This document shows positions 18,057 to 63,951 of a DNA stretch of 64,000 nucleotides, one piece after another. Positions within the stretch are counted from its first letter, which is position 1. The number at the start of each line of letters is the position of its first letter. The notes beneath the pieces were generated by a model. That model did not search any database. It saw nothing but the letters and a program-made list of their open reading frames with translations, and was not told the DNA's origin. Position numbers and translations under genes: made by a program. The DNA is from an uncultured virus (IMG/VR IMGVR_UViG_3300042350_002513) (Duplodnaviria; Heunggongvirae; Uroviricota; Caudoviricetes), in IMG/VR virus record IMGVR_UViG_3300042350_002513, one strand, 5' to 3'.

Positions 18057-18067
18057 ATAGTTTTAAA

Positions 18068-19249: not shown

Positions 19250-19252
19250 ATT

Positions 19253-49685: not shown

Positions 49686-50796
49686 TTAACACCTCATCTT
49701 CTGAAATTCCCAAGATGCGACATTTGATTTCATCCATTGTAGAAAGCCTGTCGATCTCATTTTTAACCATTGCTTTTCTTCTTTCAGCAAGTTTCAATAG
49801 TTGAGCGCGGGACTCTTCTTCTTTCCACATCTGAACAAGATTAAGAATACTGGCATTTTCTTTTATTTGCTTGCTAAGGCGATCACTGCGCTTTACTTTG
49901 AGGTCATTGAGAAGCTTTTGTTGGCGAATAGTAGATTGATTATACTCATCTCTTGCTCCGCTAATTGCTTCAATGAGACCCATTGGAATTTTGCCGCCGC
50001 CGTCTACCTCTACATCAATCTGATCTTGTAAAGTTTGAATTGTCTCTTGAATATTAGCCGAGATTACTACTTCAGTAGCCAACACAATGTATTGGTCTAC
50101 TTCTTCTTGAGTGAGATCTGGTTTGTCAAACGTATAACGTACAAATGAGCTTTCAAATAATTCACGATCAATGTTAGAAGTATAACTATTTATCTGATGC
50201 AAGAAACGATAAGTGTGCATGTAGCCAATGATAGCATTAATAGCAGCTTTCTGGCGTGAAGTTACTTTGTCTTTATCAATACCTTCGTGAACATATTTAT
50301 TTATGCGAAACAACATCCGCTCAAATGTCTTTGGCGGCATATATTCAGAGTTAGCAAGAGTCTCTACTTCTCTTTGAGATACTGGACCTGCTTGAATTAC
50401 TTTCTGATCAAGAGTTTTAATGAAATCAATAACTGTACGAGTCTCTTGACTGAGACTAGTAAGATTTTGGTTATTAAAAATACTCTTAGTGATCTCAAGT
50501 GCGCCCATTGAACCGGCATTATTAGCAATAAATTCTCTCTGGTCTGGAGATAGTTCAATTTTATCTTTCGCTAAGTATTCGTAGGATGCTCTTGCTTTAA
50601 TTTGTCTTGTTGACAAGAACTCTTTGACCTTTTTACCGTGCCAACTTCTACCGTCTGCGCCATCAACGTTAGGAAAAGCAAGCCTGACAAGTTCAAGCAA
50701 AGAAGGAGGATTAGTAGGACGATTGTTCCACTCATTTAAAATTGCCAATCTTTGTTGATCATTAAGTTCTTGAGGCTGGTTTCCATTTTCAGACAT
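49678..50796 (-). CDS. Hypothetical helical protein (terminase small subunit candidate)
   Basis: 372 aa with a C-terminal coiled coil, upstream of TerL; function positional only. Confidence 0.5.
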   Translation of the reverse strand: MSENGNQPQELNDQQRLAILNEWNNRPTNPPSLLELVRLAFPNVDGADGRSWHGKKVKEFLSTRQIKARASYEYLAKDKIELSPDQREFIANNAGSMGALEITKSIFNNQNLTSLSQETRTVIDFIKTLDQKVIQAGPVSQREVETLANSEYMPPKTFERMLFRINKYVHEGIDKDKVTSRQKAAINAIIGYMHTYRFLHQINSYTSNIDRELFESSFVRYTFDKPDLTQEEVDQYIVLATEVVISANIQETIQTLQDQIDVEVDGGGKIPMGLIEAISGARDEYNQSTIRQQKLLNDLKVKRSDRLSKQIKENASILNLVQMWKEEESRAQLLKLAERRKAMVKNEIDRLSTMDEIKCRILGISEDEVLNG

Positions 50797-51481
50797 AAAT
50801 TTCTACTTCTCCATTTACAATGCACTTCTTAGCTTTGACAATAATAGAACGCTTAAGGTTCTTTATCTGCTTGTAACCGGGGGAACGATTTTTTTCAGTA
50901 GTCTTAAATCCTAATACTTTAGCTACTTCTTCTTCTTTTTGATTTCTTAGACAAAGCATTTCATACACAACCCACTCTGCTGGCTTTAATACTTTCTTTA
51001 GTGCTGACGATAAGCTTTGTGTGCTTCTCAAGAGATCAAAGCCTTCGTTTGTCATGTCATGAACTTCTTTAATGTGATTTTCAAGAGGAAGAGTTACTTT
51101 TGTATTGAAAGCGTCTTTTTTATTATTCTCCCAATGAGCATACAAGGGGCACTTCTTGCATTGCTCACCATATATTGAACAAGAATCATCCCATTCTGCC
51201 GCCGCACACTTCAAACAAGGTCTAGCATAATTGCCATAGTTGTTTCTTATGATGTTTTTTATTTGATTAGAAATGATAATGTTTAACCAAGGGGCAAGAG
51301 GTTTCTTTGGATCATATAAAGTCCACTTTTTGTAAATATGAATCCTTAATATCTGCTCAACGTCCTCGAAATCAATCCAAGACAATGCAGCAAGGTTCCA
51401 CTTGTTCTTGCGTTTGCGAATTTCTTCGTCTATTATAGCAATGTTCTTTTCAAATGATTCTTTTTGGACTTTATGAGCCAT
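50789..51481 (-). CDS. Phage sigma70-like factor with Cys-rich insert
   Basis: DFEDVEQ.L......W..YDP......W......NQIKN..R (region 2) and a C-terminal EEVAKVLG HTH (region 4). Confidence 0.7.
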   Translation of the reverse strand: MAHKVQKESFEKNIAIIDEEIRKRKNKWNLAALSWIDFEDVEQILRIHIYKKWTLYDPKKPLAPWLNIIISNQIKNIIRNNYGNYARPCLKCAAAEWDDSCSIYGEQCKKCPLYAHWENNKKDAFNTKVTLPLENHIKEVHDMTNEGFDLLRSTQSLSSALKKVLKPAEWVVYEMLCLRNQKEEEVAKVLGFKTTEKNRSPGYKQIKNLKRSIIVKAKKCIVNGEVEIYV

Positions 51482-52970: not shown

Positions 52971-53312
52971 ATGAGGAACAAATTTCAAGTTACAGTTGTG
53001 AACCCTAAGACTTGTAGGAAGAAGATTTGTTGTGAGGGGTGCGAACTGTCATATAGCAAAGAAGATTATTTATTATTCTTCACTGTTCGTAAACTTGTTT
53101 ATTTTAATATGATTGCTGAAGATGGGAAGCAAATGAAGATTTGTGACTCTTGTTTAGTGTCTCTCGCTTCGATGACTTGCGCGAAATATGATTTACCATA
53201 TATTACTATTATAATTAAAGGTGAGGAAAATACAAAACAAATAAATATCGAGTATACTGAAGACAAGTTATTCGAAGAGGAGTTAATGAAAGTATTTAAG
53301 AAGATTAAGTAG
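52971..53312 (+). CDS. Cys-containing hypothetical protein
   Basis: 113 aa with two CxxC pairs. Confidence 0.6.
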   Translation: MRNKFQVTVVNPKTCRKKICCEGCELSYSKEDYLLFFTVRKLVYFNMIAEDGKQMKICDSCLVSLASMTCAKYDLPYITIIIKGEENTKQINIEYTEDKLFEEELMKVFKKIK

Positions 53313-53798
53313 TCTATTGTATTTTTCGCCGTTTCTCTCTTCTCGCGGTGAGTTGATTATTATATATTCCAGCATGTTAATCGCGGAATGGAAATTGTTT
53401 CTATTTTTTAGGGAGTTGCCTTCATAAGAAACAATCTTAACATTCCCCGGCACATAGCCCTTATTTGGATCTATCCTATCTAACGATGCTGATCTTTTAT
53501 TATCTATTCCTGATTTGTATAGGATTTCGTGGCCTAAAATGGGGCAGGTATTATTTTTAATGTTTATTAAATCCCCCAGCGTAAGGTTGAATTCCAGATT
53601 TTTCTTTTTTGAACGCTTTTTTGCTTTGCTTAAGATGACTTTTTTGAGATAAACTATCTCGCCTCCATCAACGTTTCCCATCTTTTCTTTAATTTTATTG
53701 TATTCTTGGGAGTAGCAACAGGTGTTACATTTGCCTTTTACTCTGTTGAAATCTGTATCTTCTTTGTTAGCCCCGCAGACAGAACATTTGATTAACAT
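53283..53798 (-). CDS. HNH-like endonuclease
   Basis: CxxC/CxxC, FNLT..D, CPILG, SLDRIDPNKGYVPGNV..VS...N..K. Confidence 0.8.
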   Translation of the reverse strand: MLIKCSVCGANKEDTDFNRVKGKCNTCCYSQEYNKIKEKMGNVDGGEIVYLKKVILSKAKKRSKKKNLEFNLTLGDLINIKNNTCPILGHEILYKSGIDNKRSASLDRIDPNKGYVPGNVKIVSYEGNSLKNRNNFHSAINMLEYIIINSPREERNGEKYNRLLNLLKYFH

Positions 53799-54169: not shown

Positions 54170-54604
54170 CTATTCTACGTTCGCCACGCTGTCAAGCCTG
54201 AAAAGCAGGAACTCGGGATCGTCCTTGTCGGGAGTGTATTCCCGGATCGTGGCGATTTCTTCGGGAGTGGCTTCCCGTCCGTCCACAAGGAATCGGATCG
54301 TCCTTTGGGCGTTGCTTGGCAAGCCCACAAGGTAAAGGTTCCCGTCCGTCTTATGGCGAGCCACGCCGTCCTTGACCCATTCCCACCAAGTCGGCTTTCC
54401 GACAGGCTCCCGTCCGTCCTTTTCCAAGCGGCGACCGTAGGAACCAAGCCCCGCCACGTTGACGACGACCCTGTGATCCCTTGTGACCCTTCCCGTCAAG
54501 GGATTGAGGGGAACGCCAGACCTGCCGCCCTTGTTCATTTTATGCTCGCCCTGAATCAGGATCGTGGCGACTTGACCGGCCCGGATGTTTTCGATGTTGA
54601 TCAT
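54170..54604 (-). CDS. Hypothetical protein, GC-rich paralogue of 55032-55460
   Basis: Start MINIENIRAGQ chosen by alignment with the paralogue. Confidence 0.85.
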   Translation of the reverse strand: MINIENIRAGQVATILIQGEHKMNKGGRSGVPLNPLTGRVTRDHRVVVNVAGLGSYGRRLEKDGREPVGKPTWWEWVKDGVARHKTDGNLYLVGLPSNAQRTIRFLVDGREATPEEIATIREYTPDKDDPEFLLFRLDSVANVE

Positions 54605-54723: not shown

Positions 54724-54909
54724 TTGGCACGGTCCATGCTCCCCAGCACGTTTCATGCCAAGTCTAAGTTGGCACACTTTTTGCTCCCCAGCAAGTCCTA
54801 TGCCAAGTCCGTCCAAACGATAGTTTTCCAATCTGGGGTCCCCAATTCCGAAAACTATCAAATCCCCATAGTTGGCATGGTTTCTGCTCCCCAGCAAGGG
54901 TCGTGCCAA
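54724..54909. promoter_or_regulatory. Three 38-bp palindromes, each two head-to-head sigma54-type boxes
   Basis: TTGGCA-N7-TGCT-CCCC-AGCA-N7-TGCCAA at 54724-54761, 54769-54806 and 54872-54909. Confidence 0.8.
54819..54859. repeat. 41-bp boundary element, copy 1
   Basis: GATAGTTTT CCAATCT GGGGTCCCC AATTCCG AAAACTATC. Confidence 0.95.
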
Positions 54910-55031
54910 GTGCCCGTTAACGTAGAAAATTAAAGTAGATTTAGTTCTTGTATATATATAAGTATATAGTAAATTGGCATAGTCAGTTTGGTTCTTATAT
55001 AAATACAACGTCACTATATAAATACAACATC

Positions 55032-55460
55032 ATGATCAATATAAATACAATACGCGCTGGTCAGATCGCTACTATACTACTAGAAGGCGAGTATAAATTA
55101 AACACTGGTGGCCGTAGTGGTATACCACTAAATATATACAAAGGCCGTGTCACTAGAAAGTTCCGTTTTACTATATCGTTGGCGGGTGAAGAAACCTATT
55201 ATAATATCAATCCCGATGCTATTGGTAAACCCACTTGGTTTGAGTTTATCAAAGACGGCGTAGTGAGAAACAAGAAAACCGGCCAATTGTATTTGGCTGG
55301 CATTCCTCATAACAACAAGAACAACAAGTTTGATTTATATATAGACGGTCGTCCTATTACTAAAGAAGAATACGACTATATTCAACAATATCGCCAAGAT
55401 AAAGAAGAATGCAAGTTCCTCACTATGTCTGTTGATAGTGTAGTAAATGTCGAAGACTGA
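55032..55460 (+). CDS. Hypothetical protein, AT-rich paralogue of 54170-54604
   Basis: MININTIRAGQIATILLEGE...GGRSG.PLN...GKPTW.E..KDGV.R.K..G.LYL.G.P. Confidence 0.85.
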   Translation: MININTIRAGQIATILLEGEYKLNTGGRSGIPLNIYKGRVTRKFRFTISLAGEETYYNINPDAIGKPTWFEFIKDGVVRNKKTGQLYLAGIPHNNKNNKFDLYIDGRPITKEEYDYIQQYRQDKEECKFLTMSVDSVVNVED

Positions 55461-55514
55461 TATATAAACAGTGGGGCGCGAATACTATAAACGCGCATTT
55501 AATACTAAAACACT

Positions 55515-55712
55515 ATGAATGCTAATAAAATAGGTGTTATGGAAATGATTGATATACGAATTGCTATTCAAGCAGAGATAGACAAATGTAATACGCTTAT
55601 AGCAGAGTGTGACAAAGGTAATTACAATAAGGACATCTTTGTTGATAAAAGAGATAGCCTTACTAGAGGTCTAGCTAAATTGAATAAGCAATACTATGAT
55701 TTCATGCTATGA
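55515..55712 (+). CDS. Hypothetical protein
   Basis: 65 aa, followed by a terminator; loosely similar to 61207-61395 (E..(D/E).R.A). Confidence 0.7.
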   Translation: MNANKIGVMEMIDIRIAIQAEIDKCNTLIAECDKGNYNKDIFVDKRDSLTRGLAKLNKQYYDFML

Positions 55713-55768
55713 TAATACTACTTCTTGTTGTCGTGTTAATAGGCATGACTAGATAAGCCCTTAATGAC

Positions 55769-55799
55769 AAACCCTCTGTAGTAATACAGGGGGTTTCTT
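55769..55799 (+). terminator. Intrinsic terminator
   Basis: AACCCTCTGTA-loop-TACAGGGGGTTTCTT. Confidence 0.75.
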
Positions 55800-55826
55800 G
55801 TTTATAAATAGTTGTTTATAAATAGC

Positions 55827-55867
55827 GATAGTTTTTGATTTTGGACACCCCGAATCCAGAAACTATC
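55827..55867. repeat. 41-bp boundary element, copy 2
   Basis: GATAGTTTT TGATTTT GGACACCCC GAATCCA GAAACTATC. Confidence 0.95.
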
Positions 55868-55988
55868 AAATCAGTGATAAATCACTAGTACTACTATTAT
55901 TTGGCATTTATTTGTTTAATATTTATTTAATATTTGCACAAAAAAACCCCACTGTTTATCACAGCGGGGTATTGTATTTGTTTAGTGT

Positions 55989-56405
55989 TTATTCATAATG
56001 TGGGCGAGGCTCCGCGCTATTGTCGGATTCGCCGCGCACCTGTTCGATGGTCACCCACAGTTCGCCGCCATCGTTCCATCCTGTGGGGATGTAGCCCTCA
56101 TCGTGGTACGCCGTGTCACATTCCTCGCCCGGAAGCGCGGCCATCGCACGATACCGCGCAGGGGCTTCCTCGCGGTTCTCGCGCTCCACTTCCGCCTTGG
56201 CCTTTTCAAGCCAAGCCTCGGCCCCCTCCGTGGTGGGGAAGTAAATTGACCCCTCCAGCGTATTCCTATCGTACCACCAGCCACCTTCCTCGGGTCCACC
56301 GTAGTTCTGGCTTCGGCGATACACACTGACCCACGCGCCTTGCGGCACGTTGAAGTCAGGATGGGATTCGATTTTTTCGATCAGCGACTGCATTGTTGTT
56401 TTCAT
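55989..56405 (-). CDS. Hypothetical phage protein (YGGPEEGGWWY family)
   Basis: VSVY.....YGGPEEGGWWY...P.RPHYE; promoter TTGTTT-N16-TATGGT 7 nt before the ATG; terminator at 55940-55970. Confidence 0.85.
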   Translation of the reverse strand: MKTTMQSLIEKIESHPDFNVPQGAWVSVYRRSQNYGGPEEGGWWYDRNTLEGSIYFPTTEGAEAWLEKAKAEVERENREEAPARYRAMAALPGEECDTAYHDEGYIPTGWNDGGELWVTIEQVRGESDNSAEPRPHYE

Positions 56406-56453
56406 CGTCCACACCATAACACCCGCACAAGGGAAAACAAGGGCGAAAGTGAT

Positions 56454-56496
56454 TTGTCACAGGAATTTAACAATCGCACTTGGCATGGTCCTTGCT
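56454..56496 (+). promoter_or_regulatory. Dyad plus sigma54-type box composite
   Basis: TTGTCAC-N6-TTAACAA-N6-TTGGCATGGTCCTTGCT. Confidence 0.7.
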
Positions 56497-56500
56497 TCAC

Positions 56501-56541
56501 CATAGTTTTCCGATTTTGGCACCCCAAAAGCAAAAACTATA
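56501..56541. repeat. 41-bp boundary element, copy 3
   Basis: CATAGTTTT CCGATTT TGGCACCCC AAAAGCA AAAACTATA. Confidence 0.95.
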
Positions 56542-56598
56542 AAAACTCCGCTATAGTAGTATAACGGAGTTATGTTATTTGTTATCTATTTAACAAAG

Positions 56599-57015
56599 TT
56601 AGTCCCATTTTAATGTCCATTCTTTACCAATAAAGGGACGCATTTCACGCAATTCAAAAGAACTAATACAAGAACTTCCGCACCTAGTCAATTCAGGATT
56701 ATCATTAGTCTTCCAATAAACAGTAGATCCATGTATAGAATTAACTATACAAGTACGGGGGCGATAGAAACCAAAATGCAAAAACTTATCTCCCACTTTA
56801 ATACTATCAGAAAGATCTTTCAATCCAAGTGAGTGACAGACAGAAGCTAATCTGCAATTGATCTTATCAAGCTCCAAAGCAATATCACTAGCAGAATGGA
56901 AATTAGCATTTGTTATGTTATTAGCGCAATCGTTGATTTGTTGAATGACAGACTTCACCTCATGCGCGAGCGCGAGGGTGGCGGCGGTAGTGGCGGGGCA
57001 GGAGGAGGAACTCAT
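56599..57015 (-). CDS. Hypothetical protein
   Basis: ATG 57015 lies 9 nt after TTGCAA-N16-TACCCT; terminator at 56541-56571. Confidence 0.75.
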   Translation of the reverse strand: MSSSSCPATTAATLALAHEVKSVIQQINDCANNITNANFHSASDIALELDKINCRLASVCHSLGLKDLSDSIKVGDKFLHFGFYRPRTCIVNSIHGSTVYWKTNDNPELTRCGSSCISSFELREMRPFIGKEWTLKWD

Positions 57016-57060
57016 GGTGCCCAAAGGGTAGCTGTCGGGAATGAGATTGCAAATCAATTT

Positions 57061-57101
57061 GATAGTTTTTCTTTTTGACCTGCCCAAAAGCGAAAACTAT
57101 G
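57061..57101. repeat. 41-bp boundary element, copy 4
   Basis: GATAGTTTT TCTTTTT GACCTGCCC AAAAGCG AAAACTATG. Confidence 0.9.
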
Positions 57102-57150
57102 AAAAAACCCCGCTGTACTAATACAACGGGGCTGTTTATTTATCACTATT

Positions 57151-57354
57151 TCACCAATCAGAATCTTGCCCAGTGGGGTCTTCGTCCCACCCGCGCTGCC
57201 ACTCAGAATGGCAGGGTTGGCAAACCGCGCTCCGTGCCTTCGGGGGCATCAAAACGCTGCAACGGGCGCAATGGAAACGCTCTGCGCCGTTTTCGTCGAT
57301 GACGGGGCAACCGCCAGCTTCGTGCCCACAACAAGGGAAGTCTTCGCAAGCCAT
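57151..57354 (-). CDS. Small Cys-rich (zinc-binding) protein
   Basis: CEDFPCCGH...C, CARC and CQPC; terminator at 57102-57133. Confidence 0.8.
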   Translation of the reverse strand: MACEDFPCCGHEAGGCPVIDENGAERFHCARCSVLMPPKARSAVCQPCHSEWQRGWDEDPTGQDSDW

Positions 57355-57438
57355 AATTTTGTATTGATTTTTTAATTGATTCTAACCGTCGCGCAGATTG
57401 TCGCTGACTTTTCATCTCAAATCAACGGCAAAAATCAT

Positions 57439-57481
57439 TTGTCACCAGAATTTAACAATTGGCTTTGGCATGAGATTTGCT
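57439..57481 (+). promoter_or_regulatory. Dyad plus sigma54-type box composite
   Basis: TTGTCAC-N6-TTAACAA-N6-TTGGCATGAGATTTGCT. Confidence 0.7.
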
Positions 57482-57485
57482 TCGG

Positions 57486-57526
57486 GATAGTTTCTGAAAT
57501 CGGGCACCCCAGATCCAAAAACTATG
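57486..57526. repeat. 41-bp boundary element, copy 5
   Basis: GATAGTTTC TGAAATC GGGCACCCC AGATCCA AAAACTATG. Confidence 0.95.
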
Positions 57527-57657
57527 AAATAGTGATAAATCAGTGATAAATCACTATTCTTTATTTATATTTGGTTATTATTTGCAGAACATTTGATTAA
57601 TATTTGACACAAAAAAACCCGCCGTATTACTACAGCGGGTCTCGTATTGTTATTGAA

Positions 57658-57915
57658 TTATGGTTCGTTGATGTATTGATTCCATTTATCAATAGCGTTT
57701 GTCAGAATGTATTCGTCAATCTCAGTGATAGAATCAGCATCAAACACTGATTTATCATAAGCAACGATACTGACATACTGTTGGCGAGTTTCGAGATCAT
57801 AATCAAATATCACTTCAACAGCAATATCAGAACCAAACACATTAATTTTGGAGTTACAAACACTGAGATTCCCTTTGTTTTTAAGGGTTCCGTTTACAAT
57901 AGGAATGAGATGCAT
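57658..57915 (-). CDS. Hypothetical protein
   Basis: 85 aa; terminator at 57611-57640. Confidence 0.7.
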   Translation of the reverse strand: MHLIPIVNGTLKNKGNLSVCNSKINVFGSDIAVEVIFDYDLETRQQYVSIVAYDKSVFDADSITEIDEYILTNAIDKWNQYINEP

Positions 57916-57923
57916 ATGATTTA

Positions 57924-58121
57924 TCAGAAGCGGCTGAGATGCAATTCGTACAATTCCTGAAAGTATAAATCAGTGATACTATCACACTCAGCTTCTGTTA
58001 AATCGCGATTCAATTGTTTATGAAAAGCGGAATCGACATAAGCATTGCAGCTACCGGGATTAATGATAATAACTTCCTCTAAATCACTAAACTTGATTGT
58101 GGTTTTTGTATTAGTACTCAT
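57924..58121 (-). CDS. Hypothetical protein
   Basis: Start MSTNTK after an A-rich leader; AYVDSA......R.LTE.E.D motif. Confidence 0.7.
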   Translation of the reverse strand: MSTNTKTTIKFSDLEEVIIINPGSCNAYVDSAFHKQLNRDLTEAECDSITDLYFQELYELHLSRF

Positions 58122-58215
58122 GTTGTGTTTATAAATAAGAACAGTCCGACACTGAAGCTTACCACGCCCACGGAAGGAGTAAACAGGTATTTTTGACCAA
58201 TTTTGATACCTAATC

Positions 58216-58256
58216 GATAGTTTTCCGTTTTGGGCTGCCCAGATCCAAAAACTATG
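58216..58256. repeat. 41-bp boundary element, copy 6
   Basis: GATAGTTTT CCGTTTT GGGCTGCCC AGATCCA AAAACTATG. Confidence 0.95.
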
Positions 58257-58327
58257 CCGAGAGCATAGGCGACAAACCCTGTCAAGCACTTTATTTGCAC
58301 TTTATTTGCGTCAAATTGGAATATTTT

Positions 58328-58355
58328 TTGACAACCGCCAGCGATCTGATAACTT
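58328..58355 (+). promoter_or_regulatory. sigma70-type promoter (leaderless)
   Basis: TTGACA-N16-TAACTT, ATG 9 nt downstream. Confidence 0.8.
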
Positions 58356-58364
58356 GTCCCCGTC

Positions 58365-58643
58365 ATGAATCAACACCAACACATCGACACCGCCAGCGAC
58401 CTCCGCGACCTCATCGCCATTGCGCCCACGGAGGAAACTCCCGTCGCCGAAGTCCCCACAACCCAAGTGCAAGTCAGTCAAGACATTTTTCTGGAAATGC
58501 GCGTCCAGCTTATGGCCTATCGCTCCGACGTTCGCTACTTCATGAACGGCATCATCGGCGAAGAAGAGAAGAAGAAAACCATTGACAAGTTGAACCAAGT
58601 CCTTGAAGACTCGGCTTGGGGAAAAGTCAAGATGATTTACTGA
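58365..58643 (+). CDS. Hypothetical protein
   Basis: 92 aa between a promoter and the CCCCGCTTCGGCGGGG terminator (58652-58671). Confidence 0.8.
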   Translation: MNQHQHIDTASDLRDLIAIAPTEETPVAEVPTTQVQVSQDIFLEMRVQLMAYRSDVRYFMNGIIGEEEKKKTIDKLNQVLEDSAWGKVKMIY

Positions 58644-58671
58644 AAAAACTCACCCCGCTTCGGCGGGGCTT

Positions 58672-58712
58672 CATAGTTTCCAGAACGGGGCACCCCAGAC
58701 GCAAAAACTATC
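58672..58712. repeat. 41-bp boundary element, copy 7
   Basis: CATAGTTTC CAGAACG GGGCACCCC AGACGCA AAAACTATC. Confidence 0.95.
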
Positions 58713-58789
58713 CCCTTCGCTCCCGCGAAGAAAAAGATTTTTGGTTTTTTATTTGACTCTTTCGGGCCAAAGTTTAATCTGTAGGGGTC

Positions 58790-58990
58790 ATGAGCAAAAC
58801 GATTGAATTTTACAACCGCGAAGTCTACGGCAACCTGCGCGAGTACGTTGCCAACGAAGGTGACGCAAACATCATTTACCGCTTGACGGGAAAGAAAACC
58901 ATCACTAGTGTGGAGCGCGAGTTGATTCGTGACCTCTCCGGTGGTCTGATTCATTTCAAACAAATTTTGCCCCCTTCGAAGTCGAAGTGA
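58790..58990 (+). CDS. Hypothetical protein
   Basis: 66 aa with VYG....Y.......I..LTGKKT motif; promoter TTGACT-N16-TAATCT at 58753-58780. Confidence 0.8.
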   Translation: MSKTIEFYNREVYGNLREYVANEGDANIIYRLTGKKTITSVERELIRDLSGGLIHFKQILPPSKSK

Positions 58991-59006
58991 GGGTGGGTTA
59001 AGGCAC

Positions 59007-59184
59007 AAGCGGCATGGTACGCAGGGAGACCCTGCGGCGGGTTAGTTGAACCTTTAGAAACACCGCTTTTTAGATTGGGTTCGCGTCAAATGGTACGCAG
59101 GGAGATCCTGCGGCAGGGTTTTTTCTAAGAGAATAAGACTTGTTCTCTTTTGGGTTTTGACCCTCATGAAACAGACGCGAATCC
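59007..59184 (+). ncRNA. Tandem pair of putative structured RNA elements
   Basis: Two copies of stem-AUGGUA-hairpin-GC-hairpin-NNNGAAACA-stem, with different but complementary outer stems. Confidence 0.6.
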
Positions 59185-59188
59185 TTTC

Positions 59189-59229
59189 GATAGTTTCGGG
59201 CAATGGGCACCCCCAACAAAAAAACTATG
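59189..59229. repeat. 41-bp boundary element, copy 8
   Basis: GATAGTTTC GGGCAAT GGGCACCCC CAACAAA AAAACTATG. Confidence 0.95.
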
Positions 59230-59246
59230 AAAAACGATTTTTCTTT

Positions 59247-59275
59247 TTGACAATCAACGCCGATTCCATTAACTT
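59247..59275 (+). promoter_or_regulatory. sigma70-type promoter (leaderless)
   Basis: TTGACA-N17-TAACTT, ATG 7 nt downstream. Confidence 0.8.
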
Positions 59276-59282
59276 GTCCCCG

Positions 59283-59588
59283 ATGAAATTAATGACGAAA
59301 CAACTCACTGAAAAACTCAAAAAGGCCGGTTCTGACGGCATGGTCCCCATTTGTAAGCTTTTCACCCCGTGGGGTGCCGTTACTTGGTTGATCACTGGGA
59401 TCGAAGGTGGCATCCTTTACGGGTTCGCTGACTTGGGCATGGGTTGCGTTGAATGGGGCGGGATCGCTTCCGTGGAAGAATTGGAAGCAATCAAGGGACC
59501 GCTTGGAATGACCATTGAGCGTGACTTGTACTGGCAACCCAAGGAAGGCGTGAATTACTTTGAACTTGAAACCCTCGCGGCTGTTTAA
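59283..59588 (+). CDS. DUF2958-like protein
   Basis: KLFTPWG..TW.I......L.G..DLG.G..E.G..S..EL....G..G..IERDLYW. Confidence 0.8.
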   Translation: MKLMTKQLTEKLKKAGSDGMVPICKLFTPWGAVTWLITGIEGGILYGFADLGMGCVEWGGIASVEELEAIKGPLGMTIERDLYWQPKEGVNYFELETLAAV

Positions 59589-59590
59589 TT

Positions 59591-59773
59591 ATGAGAGAAT
59601 CTGTTTATGCTGCCGAGTGTTGGGCTACTGATAAATCAAAAGAAGAAATCCAATCAGAAATCAATTACTTACAAAACCTTTGGAAGATTAAACACCCAAA
59701 CCCTTTCCCTAAAAACGCACACTATAGTCACATCAGGATTGTAACACTAAAAGAAATCCTTAAGAATAAATAA
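59591..59773 (+). CDS. Hypothetical protein
   Basis: 60 aa in a tightly packed operon. Confidence 0.65.
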   Translation: MRESVYAAECWATDKSKEEIQSEINYLQNLWKIKHPNPFPKNAHYSHIRIVTLKEILKNK

Positions 59774-59775
59774 AT

Positions 59776-59979
59776 ATGAATCCAAACTATAGACAACTCG
59801 CTGAACGTGAAAAACATTTAATCCCAAAAGAGTTCTGGGATATGATGGAATCACAAGCTTGGGAGCGTGGACATTCAAGTGGACAACAGGAAGTCGATTT
59901 ACTACTGATGAATCTAGTGAATGATTTTGTTGACGCTACTATCAAATACACTATAAGAACTGGTAAGACGCTTGTTTAA
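59776..59979 (+). CDS. Hypothetical protein
   Basis: 67 aa with AWERGHSSG..EV motif. Confidence 0.75.
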   Translation: MNPNYRQLAEREKHLIPKEFWDMMESQAWERGHSSGQQEVDLLLMNLVNDFVDATIKYTIRTGKTLV

Positions 59980-59983
59980 TAAT

Positions 59984-60109
59984 ATGTCAATCGACGAAAT
60001 TCTTTTTAATTACAACAAAGCATACGATAAACTAGTTCATTGCGCCGAAAATGAATATGAAGTAGCAGAAAAGAAATTGCAATATTGGCGGCATTTATTT
60101 TTCAGATAA
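59984..60109 (+). CDS. Small hypothetical protein (41 aa)
   Basis: Hand-translated MSIDEILFNYNKAYDKL...HLFFR; fills the operon gap exactly. Confidence 0.6.
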   Translation: MSIDEILFNYNKAYDKLVHCAENEYEVAEKKLQYWRHLFFR

Positions 60110-60110
60110 T

Positions 60111-60305
60111 ATGAAAGCTCTCACACTTCAACAGATACAAGCTAACTTAAAAGAATGGATGGGTGATAGTATAAAGCCCGATACCAGAAGCGGAAAACTT
60201 GCAGAGCGTACTTACATAAAGGCTCTTTTAGATACAGGCGCAACTGTTCCGCCGATTTGCATTATACTACTACAGAGTGGACGTAGTATTGTAAACTTCA
60301 AATAA
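60111..60305 (+). CDS. Hypothetical protein
   Basis: 64 aa ending PP...I...SGRSI; terminator at 60311-60332. Confidence 0.7.
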   Translation: MKALTLQQIQANLKEWMGDSIKPDTRSGKLAERTYIKALLDTGATVPPICIILLQSGRSIVNFK

Positions 60306-60332
60306 ATAGTAACCCCGCCCCGGCGGGGCTTT

Positions 60333-60373
60333 CATAGTTTCCGAAATTGGCCTCCCCGAATCAAAAAACTATC
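60333..60373. repeat. 41-bp boundary element, copy 9
   Basis: CATAGTTTC CGAAATT GGCCTCCCC GAATCAA AAAACTATC. Confidence 0.95.
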
Positions 60374-60390
60374 AAATCGAAAAAAAATCT

Positions 60391-60418
60391 TTGACACTCT
60401 CCAAGAATCTGATATTTT
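60391..60418 (+). promoter_or_regulatory. sigma70-type promoter (leaderless)
   Basis: TTGACA-N16-TATTTT, ATG 7 nt downstream. Confidence 0.75.
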
Positions 60419-60425
60419 CTCTCAC

Positions 60426-60818
60426 ATGAACAAAATCACTTTGTCTCTATTTGTCGTCGCCCTTGTAACCCTTGGGTTTTCCCGCCGCAACCACGGCACG
60501 AAGGAAGACTTGTTTCGCGCAATGGCCCAAGTTGAATCTTCAGGCAATCCCAAGGCAATCAACGCCAAGGAAACTGCCCTTGGAATTTACCAAATCCGCC
60601 CCATGTATTTTCTTGACGCTGGAGTCAAGGGGGCGCATAGTCAGGTGTATGACCCTGCGGTCGCCCGTAAGGTCTGTGAGCGTTACTTTATGCGATATGA
60701 GCCTAAAGCTTTTGCCAATAATGACATAGAGACTTTGGCTCGCTTGCATAATGGCGGTCCTAATTGGCGCAAAAAAGATACTGATAAATACTGGAATAAA
60801 ATCAAAAAACACTTGTAA
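60426..60818 (+). CDS. Lysozyme-like protein (destabilase/transglycosylase type) with N-terminal hydrophobic segment
   Basis: VESSG...G.YQI...Y..DA...ARLHNGGP...T.KYW. Confidence 0.8.
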   Translation: MNKITLSLFVVALVTLGFSRRNHGTKEDLFRAMAQVESSGNPKAINAKETALGIYQIRPMYFLDAGVKGAHSQVYDPAVARKVCERYFMRYEPKAFANNDIETLARLHNGGPNWRKKDTDKYWNKIKKHL

Positions 60819-60822
60819 TAAT

Positions 60823-60924
60823 ATGAGCAACAAAACCTTTGATAGAATCATAAATACTGTAATTACATTACTCGTCATTGCTACTGTTGTTAGTGTTACT
60901 GTGGTTTACAATATTATCTTTTAA
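60823..60924 (+). CDS. Small membrane peptide (33 aa)
   Basis: Hand-translated MSNKTFDRIINTVITLLVIATVVSVTVVYNIIF. Confidence 0.55.
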   Translation: MSNKTFDRIINTVITLLVIATVVSVTVVYNIIF

Positions 60925-60928
60925 TAAT

Positions 60929-61210
60929 ATGGAACTCACTTTTCTTTCTGACCCCGGCCACGGTTGGCTTCGCGTTCCTCATAAATTGCTTGAAGACTGG
61001 AATATTGATATCTTAATATCAGAGTATAGTTATAGAACAAGAGACTTTGCTTACTTAGAGGAAGACTGTGATGCTTCTATCTTCATTGACGAAGCCAAGA
61101 AAAGGAATTACAAATATTCTATTCACTATAAGTTGATTAAAGACTTCGATTACTATCTCAAAAGCGTTGGCAATTACTATAGATTCAACAATAACCTAAG
61201 AACAGCATGA
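60929..61210 (+). CDS. Conserved phage protein (DPGHGWL...YLEEDCD family)
   Basis: SDPGHGWL.V...IS.YSY.....YLEEDCDA..F motif. Confidence 0.8.
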   Translation: MELTFLSDPGHGWLRVPHKLLEDWNIDILISEYSYRTRDFAYLEEDCDASIFIDEAKKRNYKYSIHYKLIKDFDYYLKSVGNYYRFNNNLRTA

Positions 61211-61395
61211 GTGCAGAATTAAAAATAACAATACAAGAAGTAGTAGAACTCCGTGTAGCACTAAATAACGCAGAACGCCGTATCAAAGAGCTAATGGCGT
61301 TAAAGCATGAAGACTGGCATAAATTGTATCATTTAGATATTGATTCAATAGAAAAAGGGAAACAAGCCCTTAAAACTATTATACAAAGAGATTAA
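61207..61395 (+). CDS. Hypothetical protein
   Basis: 62 aa, ATGA overlap with the previous gene; terminator at 61401-61422. Confidence 0.7.
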   Translation: MSAELKITIQEVVELRVALNNAERRIKELMALKHEDWHKLYHLDIDSIEKGKQALKTIIQRD

Positions 61396-61422
61396 ATCAC
61401 AACCCCGCTTCGGCGGGGTTTT

Positions 61423-61463
61423 CATAGTTTCTGGAATCGGGCACCCCGAAGGAAAAAACTATC
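61423..61463. repeat. 41-bp boundary element, copy 10
   Basis: CATAGTTTC TGGAATC GGGCACCCC GAAGGAA AAAACTATC. Confidence 0.95.
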
Positions 61464-61526
61464 CCTTGCAAGAAAAGTGATCATTTCCATTGACGCTTTC
61501 CCTTTCAAGGGCTACTGTTGGGGCGT

Positions 61527-62402
61527 ATGAATAACACAGTTAAAAACGCTATCCGCCACCTCGTTTGCAAAGCCTATGACGCTTTCGCGCAAAACAAAAT
61601 AGACATTAGTGTCATATCACTCCCCGGTTCTTCGTGGGAGTTTGAGAAATACGTTGTTAATCACAGAGACTATTCTAATACGTTTACTACAAACGGATAT
61701 GGTCTTGAAATGTCACTGTTTGAATGTGACAGCAGTGAGTATCAGAGCAACTTGCGCCCAGTTGCTGCTATCTTTCCGCATAACAAGACTAGCGCATACA
61801 TGCTTTCTTGTTCTAATATTACTTATCGTAATGAATACATAAACGCTGATAGTGTTAATAAACTCAAATCCAAAAACATTTTCGCATGGTTTGATTTCTG
61901 CGGTAATCCTACTACACAAAATCTTGATTTAATTAATACCGCTAAGGGCAAGACTGCTACTTTTGTTTTTACTTTCAATACGCACTGGCGTTCTGTCAGT
62001 AATCTTAGCCCTGAGATTCTTGAAGTTGCTAATCAATACAACAAAGGATATGCCATTCAATGCTACTTGCTGCGATTGGCTATTGATTTAGGTTTGTCAC
62101 TGATTTGGTCTTTTGAGTATGTGTCAAATAATAATCCCATGATGACTATCTGTGTCAGTAATGACATTAATGTTATCACAAATCGTCCTTTGCAGGTTAA
62201 GGACTTCATCACTCACGAAAAGAAAGACAAAAAGATCAATCTTAATAAGACTAAATTGGTTCTCAATAAACGCGAATTGAGTGCCGTCTATGCGGATTTG
62301 AAAGAGCGTGTTAGTGATAGTGAAATCTGTAACAAACACAATATTAGTACAGGCACACTTGCGGCTTGTAAGGCTTGGATGACTATGTGGAAAGCTTGGT
62401 AA
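61527..62402 (+). CDS. Rossmann/methyltransferase-like protein with C-terminal HTH
   Basis: ISLPG..W.FE...LFE.D...FAWFDFCG resembles class I SAM-MTase motifs; promoter TTGACG-N17-TACTGT; terminator at 62418-62440. Confidence 0.55.
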   Translation: MNNTVKNAIRHLVCKAYDAFAQNKIDISVISLPGSSWEFEKYVVNHRDYSNTFTTNGYGLEMSLFECDSSEYQSNLRPVAAIFPHNKTSAYMLSCSNITYRNEYINADSVNKLKSKNIFAWFDFCGNPTTQNLDLINTAKGKTATFVFTFNTHWRSVSNLSPEILEVANQYNKGYAIQCYLLRLAIDLGLSLIWSFEYVSNNNPMMTICVSNDINVITNRPLQVKDFITHEKKDKKINLNKTKLVLNKRELSAVYADLKERVSDSEICNKHNISTGTLAACKAWMTMWKAW

Positions 62403-62439
62403 TACAATAGCATTATCACCCCGCCTTCGGGCGGGGTTT

Positions 62440-62480
62440 TATAGTTTCCAGATCCGGGCACCCCGAATCCAAAAACTATG
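62440..62480. repeat. 41-bp boundary element, copy 11
   Basis: TATAGTTTC CAGATCC GGGCACCCC GAATCCA AAAACTATG. Confidence 0.95.
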
Positions 62481-62535
62481 CGAAAAACCCCCTAGTGTTA
62501 AACACTAGAGGGTGCTTTATTTGTTATTTGTTGCT

Positions 62536-62730
62536 TTATTCTTTAATATTTTCTTTCTTATCAACAAGCCTATAGACTTTGAAACGAATATTATTAAGGT
62601 CTTTTCTAATACTCGCTAATTCGGCGCGAATCTTTTCGCGTCTGTTTAACAATAGCCTTGCAGACTTTTTCATCTGCTTAAGGTTATTGATTTTAGTTTG
62701 CAACTTAGTTATCTGCTTTTCTTGTGTCAT
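62536..62730 (-). CDS. Basic coiled-coil hypothetical protein
   Basis: 64 aa; terminator at 62483-62513. Confidence 0.65.
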   Translation of the reverse strand: MTQEKQITKLQTKINNLKQMKKSARLLLNRREKIRAELASIRKDLNNIRFKVYRLVDKKENIKE

Positions 62731-62794
62731 TTTCTTTTATTGTTTTCTGTTATTATACCTATAACTAATACTATTACAAGTATTGCTATAATCA

Positions 62795-63427
62795 TTAGTG
62801 CAATTTGTAACTAACGTTTTTAACTGATTTATCCCAACAGGCGCGGCAATTGAGACATTTATTATCTTGATTGGAGGCAGGACAATTGAATGTTTTATCT
62901 TTTGACACACCAGAAGTCGTTAATCCTAATATCTTAGCAATACCAGTAGGCGCATTGCCGTTTATCATTAGGGAAGAAAGGCGAATAGTGAGATTGGAAG
63001 GAATATCACCAAATTGTTTCTTGTATTGAGTAACAAATGAATATTCCCTAGTGGGTAACCAGAATTTAATACTAGGAAGATTGATAGCAATCTGACAAAT
63101 CTTTCTCAAATGCTCCACAGATTGAATATCTCCACTATCATGCCACCGGAAATAGCCACTAGTTTCTTTTCCAGCAATAGCAATAGTCATAGCGTCAACC
63201 CACTCGGGTTTGTTAATAGAGTCAAATCGTTTTTGTAAAGCGTTTCTGACATTGGGCATGTTATAGAAACCTTTTAATGCATAACACTTAGAACAAACAC
63301 TATTCTTAATAGACACTAATTTTCCGCCCGTTTTACAATACTTTGCCGGGATTGAATAGGAGCGGCACGGCATTTTTGAGGGCGCAGAGAGTCCACCAAC
63401 GAGGTCAAGGGCAAGGTCAAGATTCAT
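62795..63427 (-). CDS. GP88-family (radical-SAM-like, Cys-rich) protein
   Basis: LS.PSKMP..SYSIPA..C..G......SVC..CYA.KG.Y, FRWHDSGD, FWLPTRE, CPA......C..CRACW; start 63427 or 63430. Confidence 0.8.
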   Translation of the reverse strand: MNLDLALDLVGGLSAPSKMPCRSYSIPAKYCKTGGKLVSIKNSVCSKCYALKGFYNMPNVRNALQKRFDSINKPEWVDAMTIAIAGKETSGYFRWHDSGDIQSVEHLRKICQIAINLPSIKFWLPTREYSFVTQYKKQFGDIPSNLTIRLSSLMINGNAPTGIAKILGLTTSGVSKDKTFNCPASNQDNKCLNCRACWDKSVKNVSYKLH

Positions 63428-63482
63428 CATGGAAAGGTTAACGCAAAGGGCAAACCAGCGCAACACTTTTGTTGCGTTTTTC

Positions 63483-63523
63483 AATAGTTTTTCGCGCCGG
63501 GGTGTCCAGTTTCAAAAACTATC
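63483..63523. repeat. 41-bp boundary element, copy 12 (core inverted)
   Basis: AATAGTTTT TCGCGCC GGGGTGTCC AGTTTCA AAAACTATC. Confidence 0.9.
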
Positions 63524-63603
63524 AAAATGTAATAATAAACCCCAATCTATCAAATCGGGGCTTATTTGACTTATTTGCGGTTAATGTTTTTAATATTTGA
63601 AGC

Positions 63604-63867
63604 TTAATGAAAGAAAATTCTTGACTCGTCTTTGAATGTTTTCTCTTTGCCAGTTTCGTCCCATTCGATACCGTATGTCAAACCTTCTTCGACATGATGT
63701 TTATGTAAATAATTGAAACCCTTGTATTGCTTTGCTTCCATCAGCAGGTCCGTCACGAAGAACTGGAGAGTTCTGCGTTGAATGATCGCTTCGTTTTTGC
63801 TGGTGCAAAAGAAGTGATTGGCTTTCAGTTTGACTGATTCAAGGCTAACCGTTTTACGTTTTGTCAT
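63604..63867 (-). CDS. Hypothetical protein
   Basis: 87 aa with Y.GFNYL motif; promoter TTGCAA-N16-TACTAT 7 nt upstream. Confidence 0.8.
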   Translation of the reverse strand: MTKRKTVSLESVKLKANHFFCTSKNEAIIQRRTLQFFVTDLLMEAKQYKGFNYLHKHHVEEGLTYGIEWDETGKEKTFKDESRIFFH

Positions 63868-63910
63868 CGGGGAAATAGTAATTCATGGGCATGAGATTGC
63901 AAGGGTTTTT

Positions 63911-63951
63911 CATAGTTTTTTTATTCTGGCACCCCAGACCCGAAAACTATC
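63911..63951. repeat. 41-bp boundary element, copy 13
   Basis: CATAGTTTT TTTATTC TGGCACCCC AGACCCG AAAACTATC. Confidence 0.95.

Follow-up and report, generated by a model that had tools for sequence, protein, structure and literature searches.

We consider a stretch of 64,000 nucleotides of DNA from an uncultured virus (IMG/VR record IMGVR_UViG_3300042350_002513), referred to as the window, or as W when it is set beside its relatives, and within it a 39-bp quasi-palindromic element that separates small gene units in an array near the right end. The window is phage DNA, with genes for a large terminase, a PhoH-like protein, an ERCC4-type nuclease, an HNH/endonuclease-VII-like protein and a cement protein, together with lectin-fold fibre proteins and three giant open reading frames (ORFs). 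The nearest record (G001, 61 kb) has 90% of the window's sampled words in common with it, and because CheckV puts G001 at 36% complete the source would be an uncultured lake phage with a genome of about 170 kb; 24 public runs hold the array, every one labelled lake water metagenome. The phage is not T4-like, as its large terminase is only about 24% identical to that of any GenBank phage (out of 50,697 phage records, those of Bacillus phages and one Microcystis phage come closest), and a megablast search of the array against GenBank phages gives zero matches. The best explanation of the array is a lineage-specific family of quasi-palindromic boundary elements, each unit of the array being bracketed by two of them.

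The element is found with the pattern ATAGTTTY-N23-RAAACTAT, allowing up to two mismatches and taking dinucleotide-preserving shuffles as background. The window has 13 matches, all 13 exact and all within 54820-63950 (starts at 54820, 55828, 56502, 57062, 57487, 58217, 58673, 59190, 60334, 61424, 62441, 63484 and 63912), against 0.28 on average and at most 2 in the shuffles; the same scan finds none in positions 1-54819. A first-pass annotation of the window had placed these 13 copies one base earlier, having counted the flanking base, and had described a fixed layout free of indels, which is borne out as 8-7-9-7-8 (arm, 7-mer, core, 7-mer, arm) in 13 of 13 copies. The 41 bp of that description are the 39-bp element plus one flanking base (S; C or G in most copies) on each side. 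The copies lie 425-1144 bp apart, also as described. With the flanking bases, they are as follows.

54819..54859, plus strand: element copy 1 (E1), symmetric core GGGGTCCCC, between the divergent genes F01a and F01b
55827..55867, plus strand: element copy 2, convergent boundary with terminators on both sides
56501..56541, plus strand: element copy 3, exact pattern match
57061..57101, plus strand: element copy 4, core GACCTGCCC
57486..57526, plus strand: element copy 5, exact pattern match
58216..58256, plus strand: element copy 6, divergent boundary
58672..58712, plus strand: element copy 7, exact pattern match
59189..59229, plus strand: element copy 8, exact pattern match
60333..60373, plus strand: element copy 9, core GGCCTCCCC
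61423..61463, plus strand: element copy 10, exact pattern match
62440..62480, plus strand: element copy 11, convergent boundary
63483..63523, plus strand: element copy 12, core polarity inverted, GGGGTGTCC
63911..63951, plus strand: element copy 13, exact pattern match

The suspicion that the array continues to the right proves correct by one copy only. A 14th and last copy is seen in G001 at window-equivalent position 64982, and a relative that reaches 11 kb further right (G002) has no further copy there, so the array consists of 14 elements and 13 units. In these lake phages the elements are confined to one accessory-gene array of 10-12 kb; in G011, for example, 15 of 15 copies lie inside the array and none in the remaining 68 kb. 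The first-pass annotation had also held that a match to a known host site would remove the novelty of the element. The motif is not cellular, with 2 isolated matches in 596 billion bases of prokaryote genomes (185,579 species).

The anatomy of the element as it occurs in the window, which we call type A, is read from 76 copies (65 unique) in eight records. There is no variation at positions 1-6 (ATAGTT) and 33-39 (AAACTAT) and almost none at G16-G18 and C22-C24, T13-15 and A25-27 are strongly preferred, and the variable positions are 9-12 and 28-31. With the arrays oriented alike, the core of 90 unique elements reads C-W-C in 58, G-W-G in 5 and is symmetric in 27, counts that are descriptive and not a test because the copies share descent. 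The polarity is constant whatever direction the genes take, and the first one to three elements at the head of every array have a symmetric core. The inverted core of copy 12 and the symmetric core of copy 1 had both been pointed out before and are as claimed.

The remark that the two 7-mers mostly do not pair likewise stands, as the symmetric positions of the 65 unique copies have no pairing covariation. At two position pairs, pairing is in fact rarer than in shuffles (10/30, 9 copies against 17.8; 11/29, 16 against 21.2). As single-stranded DNA, type-A copies fold with -3.4 to -9.2 kcal/mol, three of eight no better than many shuffles. A known RNA family is rejected as the identity of the element, since nothing in Rfam matches at gathering score (best E-value 0.069). 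Taking the arm for a -10 box (TAGTTT fits TANNNT) also fails, as there is no correctly spaced -35 box and the second arm type described below does not fit.

Between the elements of the window lie 12 intervals, each with 1-5 co-oriented genes, six pointing right (c01, c06-c10) and six left (c02-c05, c11, c12). The element thus sits at divergent (E1, E6), convergent (E2, E11) and tandem boundaries, the last with a terminator on one side and the next promoter on the other. At the 3' end of each unit a GC-rich hairpin ends 4-6 nt short of the arm (in the order stem, TTTYC, ATAGTTT), always on the side where the gene ends; most hairpins come from a terminator scan, and that of c07 was read by eye. 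At the 5' end of at least nine units there is a TTGACA- or TTGCAA-like -35 box, a spacer of 16-17 nt and a TANNNT -10 box, with the ATG only 4-9 nt past the -10 box, so the mRNAs of these units look leaderless. The distance from the -35 box to the element is not fixed (7-69 nt). All of this agrees with the earlier description of co-oriented units with a promoter at one end and a terminator at the other. Its statement that no copy lies inside a credible gene or in the first 54 kb needs a single correction: a TTG-started ORF (59157-59588) overlaps copy 8, and its likelier start is the ATG at 59283, so that no element falls inside a credible gene. The units and their features are the following.

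54170..54604, minus strand: F01a, one of two paralogs flanking E1 in every array seen
54860..55826, plus strand: unit c01, with F01b (55032-55460), a 65-aa gene (55515-55712) and a terminator (55769-55796); inverted in G004 and G008
55868..56500, minus strand: unit c02, with a 142-aa gene (55989-56417, phrog_24642) and a terminator (55946-55970); GC 51%
56542..57060, minus strand: unit c03, with a 138-aa gene (56599-57015) and a terminator (56544-56571); of the compared relatives, only G002 has this unit
57102..57485, minus strand: unit c04, with a Cys-rich 67-aa gene (57151-57354) and a terminator (57106-57133); a second gene is present in G002
57527..58215, minus strand: unit c05, with two genes (57658-57915, 57924-58121) and a terminator (57614-57643)
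58257..58671, plus strand: unit c06, with a 92-aa gene (58365-58643), promoter TTGACA-N16-TAACTT and a terminator (58652-58669); GC 51%
58713..59188, plus strand: unit c07, with a 66-aa gene (58790-58990)
59230..60332, plus strand: unit c08, with a DUF2958 gene (59283-59588), four small genes and a terminator (60311-60330); inverted and moved in G003, shorter in G002 and G005
60374..61422, plus strand: unit c09, with an SLT transglycosylase gene (60426-60818) and two small genes
61464..62439, plus strand: unit c10, with a 291-aa gene (61527-62402) and a terminator (62418-62437)
62481..63482, minus strand: unit c11, with a 64-aa gene (62536-62730) and a GP88-family gene (62795-63430)
63524..63910, minus strand: unit c12, with an 87-aa gene (63604-63867) and a terminator (63534-63566)
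58330-58367, 58750-58792, 59245-59285, 60388-60428 and 61488-61529: promoter regions with a close ATG; also upstream of c03, c11 and c12

Over the arrays compared here the intervals are 331-1776 bp long and gene-bearing, and the island as a whole is a hyperplastic region of small genes mostly without assigned function.

Turnover of units between elements

We turn to the relatives of the window. Scanning IMG/VR with the arms and taking the matching records gives arrays in G002-G010, all of them metagenome assemblies, and unit maps are drawn by clustering the unit proteins of W, G002, G003, G004 and G005. Three of these maps, each unit in its own brackets, read as follows.

W: [F01,F05] [F06] [F18] [s] [F02,F03] [F04] [F11] [F07...] [F08...] [F14] [F15,F16] [F21]
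G003: [F01,F05] [F10] [F17] [F06] [F02,F03] [F04] [F23] [F08...] [F14] [...F07, inverted] [F15,F16]
G005: [F01,F05] [F22] [F10] [F02,F03] [F17] [s] [F24] [F04] [s] [F11] [F07...] [F08...]

In seven relatives with comparable arrays whole units are gained, lost, moved or inverted between elements. Five units differ by presence or absence (F17, F18, F24, F06, F22), two have moved (F06, F17), G003 has the F07 unit at another place and in the opposite orientation, and G004 and G008 have the F01 unit inverted, next to an element whose core is flipped as well. Not all change takes place at elements, because genes also come and go within units c04, c08 and c09. The first-pass annotation had named in advance what would speak against shuffling, namely identical gene order in relatives or breakpoints unrelated to the sites; the relatives differ by units, and homology breaks fall in or at elements. 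Assembly chimeras are an unlikely source of these differences, because arrangements recur across IMG/VR samples (all 12 spacings of G005 are found in L173 and the first 8 in L174) and blocks of 8-9 bp are far below assembly word lengths.

To follow the breaks to the base we compare W with G005, whose common units are 95-98% identical to those of W. At E6 the identity extends from the right flank to the right arm and is lost within the element. E7 can be set beside two elements of G005: with the one at G005r 16873 the identity spans the right arm, the right 7-mer and the core and ends before the left 7-mer, and with the one at G005r 16503 it ends right after the left arm. At E10 it covers the whole element and ends in the terminator, and at E8, where the flanks are 93-100% identical, both 7-mers have been replaced (4/7 and 3/7 bases). 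The last elements of two other relatives (G002r 22417 and G007r 21048) have the same right 7-mer, left 7-mers two bases apart and cores of opposite polarity. Among 21 syntenic junction pairs from all records, defined by both 40-nt flanks being at least 85% identical, five differ at 3-4 of 7 bases in at least one of the two 7-mers; the remaining 16 pairs show 0-2 base differences in each 7-mer.

These patterns show exchange inside elements, in parallel as well as antiparallel register, ending in the invariant blocks. A single fixed crossover misfits them because the two halves of an element would then stay with their flanks, and simple conservative site-specific exchange as the only process is disfavoured because the breakpoints are found variously in the left arm, the core and the right arm. 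At the one clear insertion, in c09 of G005, only one flanking element corresponds to the undivided one of W, and near-identical pairs of adjacent elements are few. The interiors of adjacent elements are more alike than those of non-adjacent ones (766 mismatches against 845 expected, reached in 0 of 5000 permutations over seven arrays, which are not independent of one another).

Variant joints in lake-sample contigs bear on the earlier suggestion to look for novel site-to-site junctions. The four runs examined for this each hold 68-91% of the array's sampled words, with the array split into many short contigs; these are contigs and not reads, and they can show neither circles nor frequencies. 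Among the joints listed, one leads from 57464 back to 56480, a distance of 985 bp that is exactly the distance from E3 to E5, and lies in a conserved block beside the arms; it fits a circle, a duplication or another unit order. Another leads from 62479, the last base of E11, to 63562, and one more returns to 62441, the first base of E11. Opposite-strand joints at 54902/57102 and 58280/60363 lie next to or within elements. So much of the suggestion is supported; other joints lie inside units, for example 59763 to 60111, an indel also seen in G002.

Comparison of the arrays thus shows the element to be, as judged from sequence, the joint where units are deleted, added, moved and flipped. Of the earlier proposal, shuffling is supported, with whole-unit changes in relatives and homology breaking in or at the element; a site of simple conservative recombination is less well supported, as no recombinase is found in the parts of the genome covered and the breakpoints are spread.

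Arm types and the search for a reader

A second arm type is reached through the neighbouring HNH gene, with which we take 28 loci. The type-B element, AGAGTTGC-N7-GGGCWCCCC-N7-GCAACTCT, has the length, core and polarity of type A and other arms in place of ATAGTTTY. Fourteen of the 28 loci have only type A, five only type B and nine (short pieces or distant phages) neither, so that mixed arrays number 0 of the 19 loci with elements. The 133 unique elements comprise 91 with two A arms, 42 with two B arms and no hybrid, from a scan in a 39-bp frame that considers arms 23 nt apart only and cannot show that the spacing never varies.

The arm type is independent of the phage backbone. The HNH protein of G013, a type-B phage, is 95% identical to that of W and ten neighbouring proteins are 92-100% identical to their counterparts in W, whereas the HNH proteins of other type-A phages are only 65-79% identical to that of W. 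Unit families are common to A and B arrays, with DUF2958, F13, F20 and F22 at 94-100% amino-acid identity. Where A and B are compared, homology of the flanks extends as far as the arm's first base; the arms themselves are unlike at positions 2, 7 and 8, a change that keeps the two arms complementary. A third type, C, is found in G014 and G015, whose backbone is about 50% identical; it keeps B-type arms, between which lie N5, G6, a loop of 7-11 nt, C5-6 and N5-7. This makes a spacer of 29-33 nt, varying among the copies of one array, and type-C single strands fold better than those of type A, with -8.7 to -14.3 kcal/mol.

Because the arms of an array are all ATAGTTTY or all AGAGTTGC and never mixed, the comparison shows that they appear to be read sequence-specifically and symmetrically, by something that differs between lineages. 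The reader is probably a trans-acting, phage-encoded factor linked to the array, and it would most simply be encoded in or near it, because arm type and array move together between backbones. The form in which the element is read is a separate matter. Operator-like half-sites on duplex DNA would account for the two same-type arms of A and B copies, and type C is without fixed spacing; a rigid pair of half-sites fits its length variation poorly. A stem-bubble-GC-stem-loop tolerates both the complementary arm change and this variation, which makes a folded form conceivable, and the pairing deficit at 10/30 and 11/29 could reflect a kept bubble just as well as avoidance of a cruciform. The weak folds of type-A single strands point the other way. 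The preference of the first-pass annotation for a double-stranded site over a hairpin is weakened by the same two observations on arms and type-C interiors.

What could be the reader? A Pfam scan of 77 proteins from the window and its right flank finds no recombinase, transposase or classical DNA-binding domain near the array. Six-frame searches with PF00589, PF00239 and PF01797 give no match in G001, G002, G011, G012 and G014, five records that are 20-45% complete and cover, around the arrays, about 60 kb on the left and 12 kb on the right (about 85 kb), and control genomes did match. That the window encodes no recombinase, as first noted, is what both the Pfam and the six-frame domain searches find.

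Several candidates were considered by name. The F01 paralogs have 71 relatives, all at least 47% identical and only in this phage group; an AlphaFold2 model (pLDDT 82.8) is a small beta-barrel, for which the PDB offers nothing better than a Foldseek E of 0.2 or a VIA Z of 4.4 and the ESM Atlas nothing above 0.83. The F01 tree splits by arm type, A from B, and the pair is rejected as arm reader because the type-C F01a is nearer to type A despite its B-type arms. The HNH/endonuclease-VII-like neighbour (53283-53798) is rejected as the determinant, since at 95% identity between W (A) and G013 (B) it does not follow the arm type. Tail-fibre type, taken as a proxy for a host factor, is uninformative, the fibres being mosaic and unlike even between two type-A phages. 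Three adjacent genes in the right flank, without family annotation, are 97-99% identical between B and C and 68-85% identical or absent in A; we regard them as a lead to a possible arm reader, from a comparison in which each type is represented by one lineage.

The right flank also holds an observation of its own. A gene block to the right of the array (G011 48-2341, L195; G014 56109-58730, L219) encodes proteins that are 93-99% identical between B and C, and one 156-aa gene of this block is absent from type A. By its sequence the block looks like a recent exchange between distant phages.

What the element may be

Our preferred reading, to which we give a probability of roughly 0.5, is that the element would be a sequence-specifically recognised boundary that doubles as a short-homology recombination joint for cassette shuffling. 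Parallel alignment of two elements would lead to loss, gain or transposition of a unit. Antiparallel alignment, which is possible because the element is nearly palindromic, would lead to inversion. Exchange tracts would end in the invariant arms or core, by short-homology recombination or gene conversion, as with the promoter-early stem-loops (PeSLs) of T4-type phages. Breaks made by the arm-reading factor may stimulate the exchange, and within one infection the bound factor could insulate units, help termination or make breaks.

Several points weigh against this reading. The element could not be linked to any nuclease, recombinase or DNA-binding protein, and the F01a protein of type C, where the arms are B-type, is closer to A (73%) than to B (64%). 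Since the 7-mers are kept or nearly so in 16 of the 21 junction pairs, exchange inside elements is infrequent. Homologous recombination would have very little to work with in invariant blocks of 8-9 bp. A rearrangement that spares the units has to break in the short spacers between them, and since elements fill most of each spacer, selection alone would put surviving breakpoints near elements. Cassettes cross between A and B without their arms, and a plain crossover within elements would create hybrids, of which there are none. Finally, the relatives are all metagenome assemblies and the run data are contigs, not reads.

The purity of the arm types is best accounted for by a dedicated cassette-insertion system, in which an enzyme, encoded in the unseen half of the genome or belonging to a new family, would cut at the borders of a resident element and insert or excise cassettes, leaving them flanked by the array's own element through CRISPR-like duplication or integron-like exchange at the foot of the folded element. 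We consider such a system unlikely. It would give arms that are always of the array's own type although A and B arrays have the same cassette families, one element more than units, a constant polarity that does not depend on which way the genes point (of the 90 unique elements 58 are plus, 5 minus and 27 symmetric), neighbouring elements more alike than others, cassettes of 31 to 57% GC in a phage whose own GC is about 35%, a conserved 'platform' found at one end in all arrays, its first element symmetric, and a stem-bubble-stem-loop layout that type C keeps while its length varies. The three recombinase and transposase profiles, however, match nothing in the five records, and the 77 Pfam-scanned proteins include no candidate; the halves of an element are not linked to the adjacent unit as a fixed crossover needs; the c09 insertion of G005 has the undivided element of W on one side only; and few adjacent pairs are near-identical. 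Stated as phage-borne cassette capture, with an enzyme that would recognise the arms, insert units at element borders and regenerate the resident element on both sides, the idea is improbable as we judge it. If true, it would explain at once the pure arm types, the arm-less crossing of cassettes, the constant polarity and the alike neighbours, by a logic like that of CRISPR adaptation with its duplicated repeats, or of an integron lacking a tyrosine recombinase.

The proximity of the element to terminators, whose stems end 4-6 nt before the arm on the gene-end side, its presence at convergent terminator-terminator boundaries too and the strict conservation within each type could also be read as a purely regulatory boundary, where a bound phage protein or the folded element blocks read-through or supercoil coupling and recombination is incidental. 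This is doubtful, as every unit already has its own strong terminator, the promoter lies anywhere from 7 to 69 nt away, the element is also present at divergent boundaries, which transcripts do not approach, and the block-wise replacement of 7-mers and the flipped cores are left unexplained. A binding site for some host protein, such as a nucleoid-associated or DNA-bending one, with the arm type tracking the host, is quite improbable: the full motif is absent from the 185,579 species genomes apart from the 2 isolated matches, the type-A phages W and G005 have the same arms and very different fibres (28-55% identical), and backbones can differ in arm type although the genes next to the array are 91-100% identical. 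What such a site would explain is that B and C phages have the same arms despite backbones only about 50% identical; their fibre-like proteins are 56-73% identical to each other against 34-47% to those of A, and with the near-identical right-flank block this indicates that B and C phages probably meet in one host. Least probable of all, and very much so, is an element that acts in RNA, as a processing site or terminator helper in read-through transcripts. The arm does come after the T-tract of the terminator and the A/B arm changes are compensatory, but an element placed after terminators and before promoters would seldom be transcribed, its interior lacks pairing covariation, the predicted folds of type A are weak and Rfam has no match at gathering score.

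Among known systems the boundary-and-joint reading has its closest parallel in PeSLs, which the parts of two papers that treat them describe as a promoter and stem-loop repeat between the small hyperplastic-region genes of T4-type phages (Arbiol et al. 2010, PMC2839356; Comeau et al. 2014, PMC4122927). As those parts present them, both systems have short repeats between small, mostly unassigned genes of a hyperplastic region, gene units with a sigma-70-type promoter and a GC-rich stem-loop terminator, and insertions, deletions and replacements in relatives that end at the motifs; PeSL stem-loops often have poly-G followed by poly-C, where the element has a GGG...CCC core, and PeSL mini-circles form by exchange between neighbouring motifs (PMC2839356, PMC4122927). 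A PeSL, as there described, is itself the promoter and terminator, while here both are separate and an extra invariant palindrome lies between them: no promoter hexamers are found in the 65 unique copies of the element or at a fixed distance from them, the promoters being 7-69 nt off. Fixed geometry, constant polarity, all-or-none arm switching between lineages and a host phage that is not T4-type set the element further apart, so that it works like the T4-type PeSLs and is not a member of the PeSL family.

Like the attC sites of integrons, the element is one imperfect palindrome per cassette boundary in one orientation, with cassettes of mixed origin, a platform at one end and a conceivable folded stem-bubble-stem form. 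The attC boxes read RYYYAAC...GTTRRRY and attC sites are 57-141 bp long, whereas here the order is the reverse, GTT in the left arm and AAC in the right, in an element of 39-41 bp, and no IntI-type tyrosine recombinase is found in the five records of 20-45% completeness. Integron cassettes are mostly promoterless, co-oriented and expressed from Pc; the units here carry their own promoters, point six to the right and six to the left, and do not take element halves with them. CRISPR arrays have palindromic repeats of similar length in one orientation, one more than the inserts and pure in type, with spacers of about 25-50 bp and cas genes. Here the inserts are gene units of 331-1776 bp, the interiors of the repeats are variable, and the Pfam scans find no cas domain. 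Repetitive extragenic palindromic (REP) sequences and their RAYT transposases offer another likeness, in imperfect palindromes of 35-40 bp between genes, often near terminators and lineage-specific; REP/BIME elements are thought to co-evolve with a cognate protein. The five records have no Y1 transposase (PF01797), and the copies here are clustered and absent from cellular genomes. The palindrome of Cluster O mycobacteriophages likewise has invariant arms, a variable centre and dozens of copies per genome, and differs, in the portion of that paper describing it, in being 17 bp long, genome-wide and partly in genes, and not at unit boundaries or tied to cassette turnover (Cresawn et al. 2015, PMC4351075). 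A full-text literature search screened by title and abstract, which is weak evidence of absence, found no description of an element such as this one.

The element is apparently a new kind of joint for modular phage evolution, the new points being the switching of arm type, the three variants and the absence of hybrids. The accessory islands of large phages carry genes that probably serve host take-over and counter-defence, and how such islands are rebuilt fast without wrecking expression is not known in any detail except for T4-type PeSLs. The present case is cleaner and more testable, with an element that is distinct from promoter and terminator, keeps a fixed geometry and exists in three or more natural variants of specificity. 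The unmixed arm types offer a direct route to the factor, through covariation and through binding to A- versus B-type arms, and simple recombination assays are open as well.

Other features near the array

Single units span 31 to 57% GC, against 38-45% in the array and 34-39% across most of the first 54 kb, and the neighbouring paralogs F01a and F01b are strongly unlike in GC. The spread and this contrast suggest units that differ in origin or age. The families encoded in units include DUF2958, DUF932 (G002 11215-12075, L151), GP88 and SLT transglycosylase. DUF2958 and DUF932 are common on plasmids and other mobile elements.

A second palindrome family, P, of 38 bp (TTGGCA-N6-yTGCT-CCCC-AGCAr-N6-TGCCAA), brackets E1 between the divergent F01 genes and is also present in type-B and type-C arrays. 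Its copies in the window, for which no strand is assigned, are these.

54724-54761: palindrome P
54769-54806: palindrome P
54872-54909: palindrome P
about 56479-56497 and 57464-57482: half copies of palindrome P

Each half of P fits what we take to be the sigma-54 -24/-12 consensus (TGGCAY-N5-TTGCT). A sigma-54 promoter is rejected as its identity, since the halves face each other and match no gene layout.

Some leftward units have an AT-rich conserved block of 75-135 bp between element and terminator (55868-55945 and 57527-57613; G013 12598-12732). In G013 it contains a promoter-like TTGACA-N17-TAAACC with no ORF behind it, and its Rfam matches are below gathering scores; the block may encode a short RNA. 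The word TTTATAAATA occurs in two tandem copies just left of E2 (55800-55826) and once left of E6 (about 58130-58142), and contains TATAAATA, which we take to be the late-promoter word of T4.

Further from the array, the three giant ORFs are all on the minus strand (2-7165, at least 2388 aa and leaving the window; 21863-29296, 2477 aa; 29301-37358, 2685 aa) and have one Pfam domain in total, Laminin_G_3. Together with three lectin-fold fibre genes (15936-21553) they are mosaic among close relatives. A 230-aa protein encoded at 50789-51481 on the minus strand has a weak Sigma70_r2 match (E 4.8e-05, 23.5 bits against a cut-off of 24) and may be a phage sigma factor.

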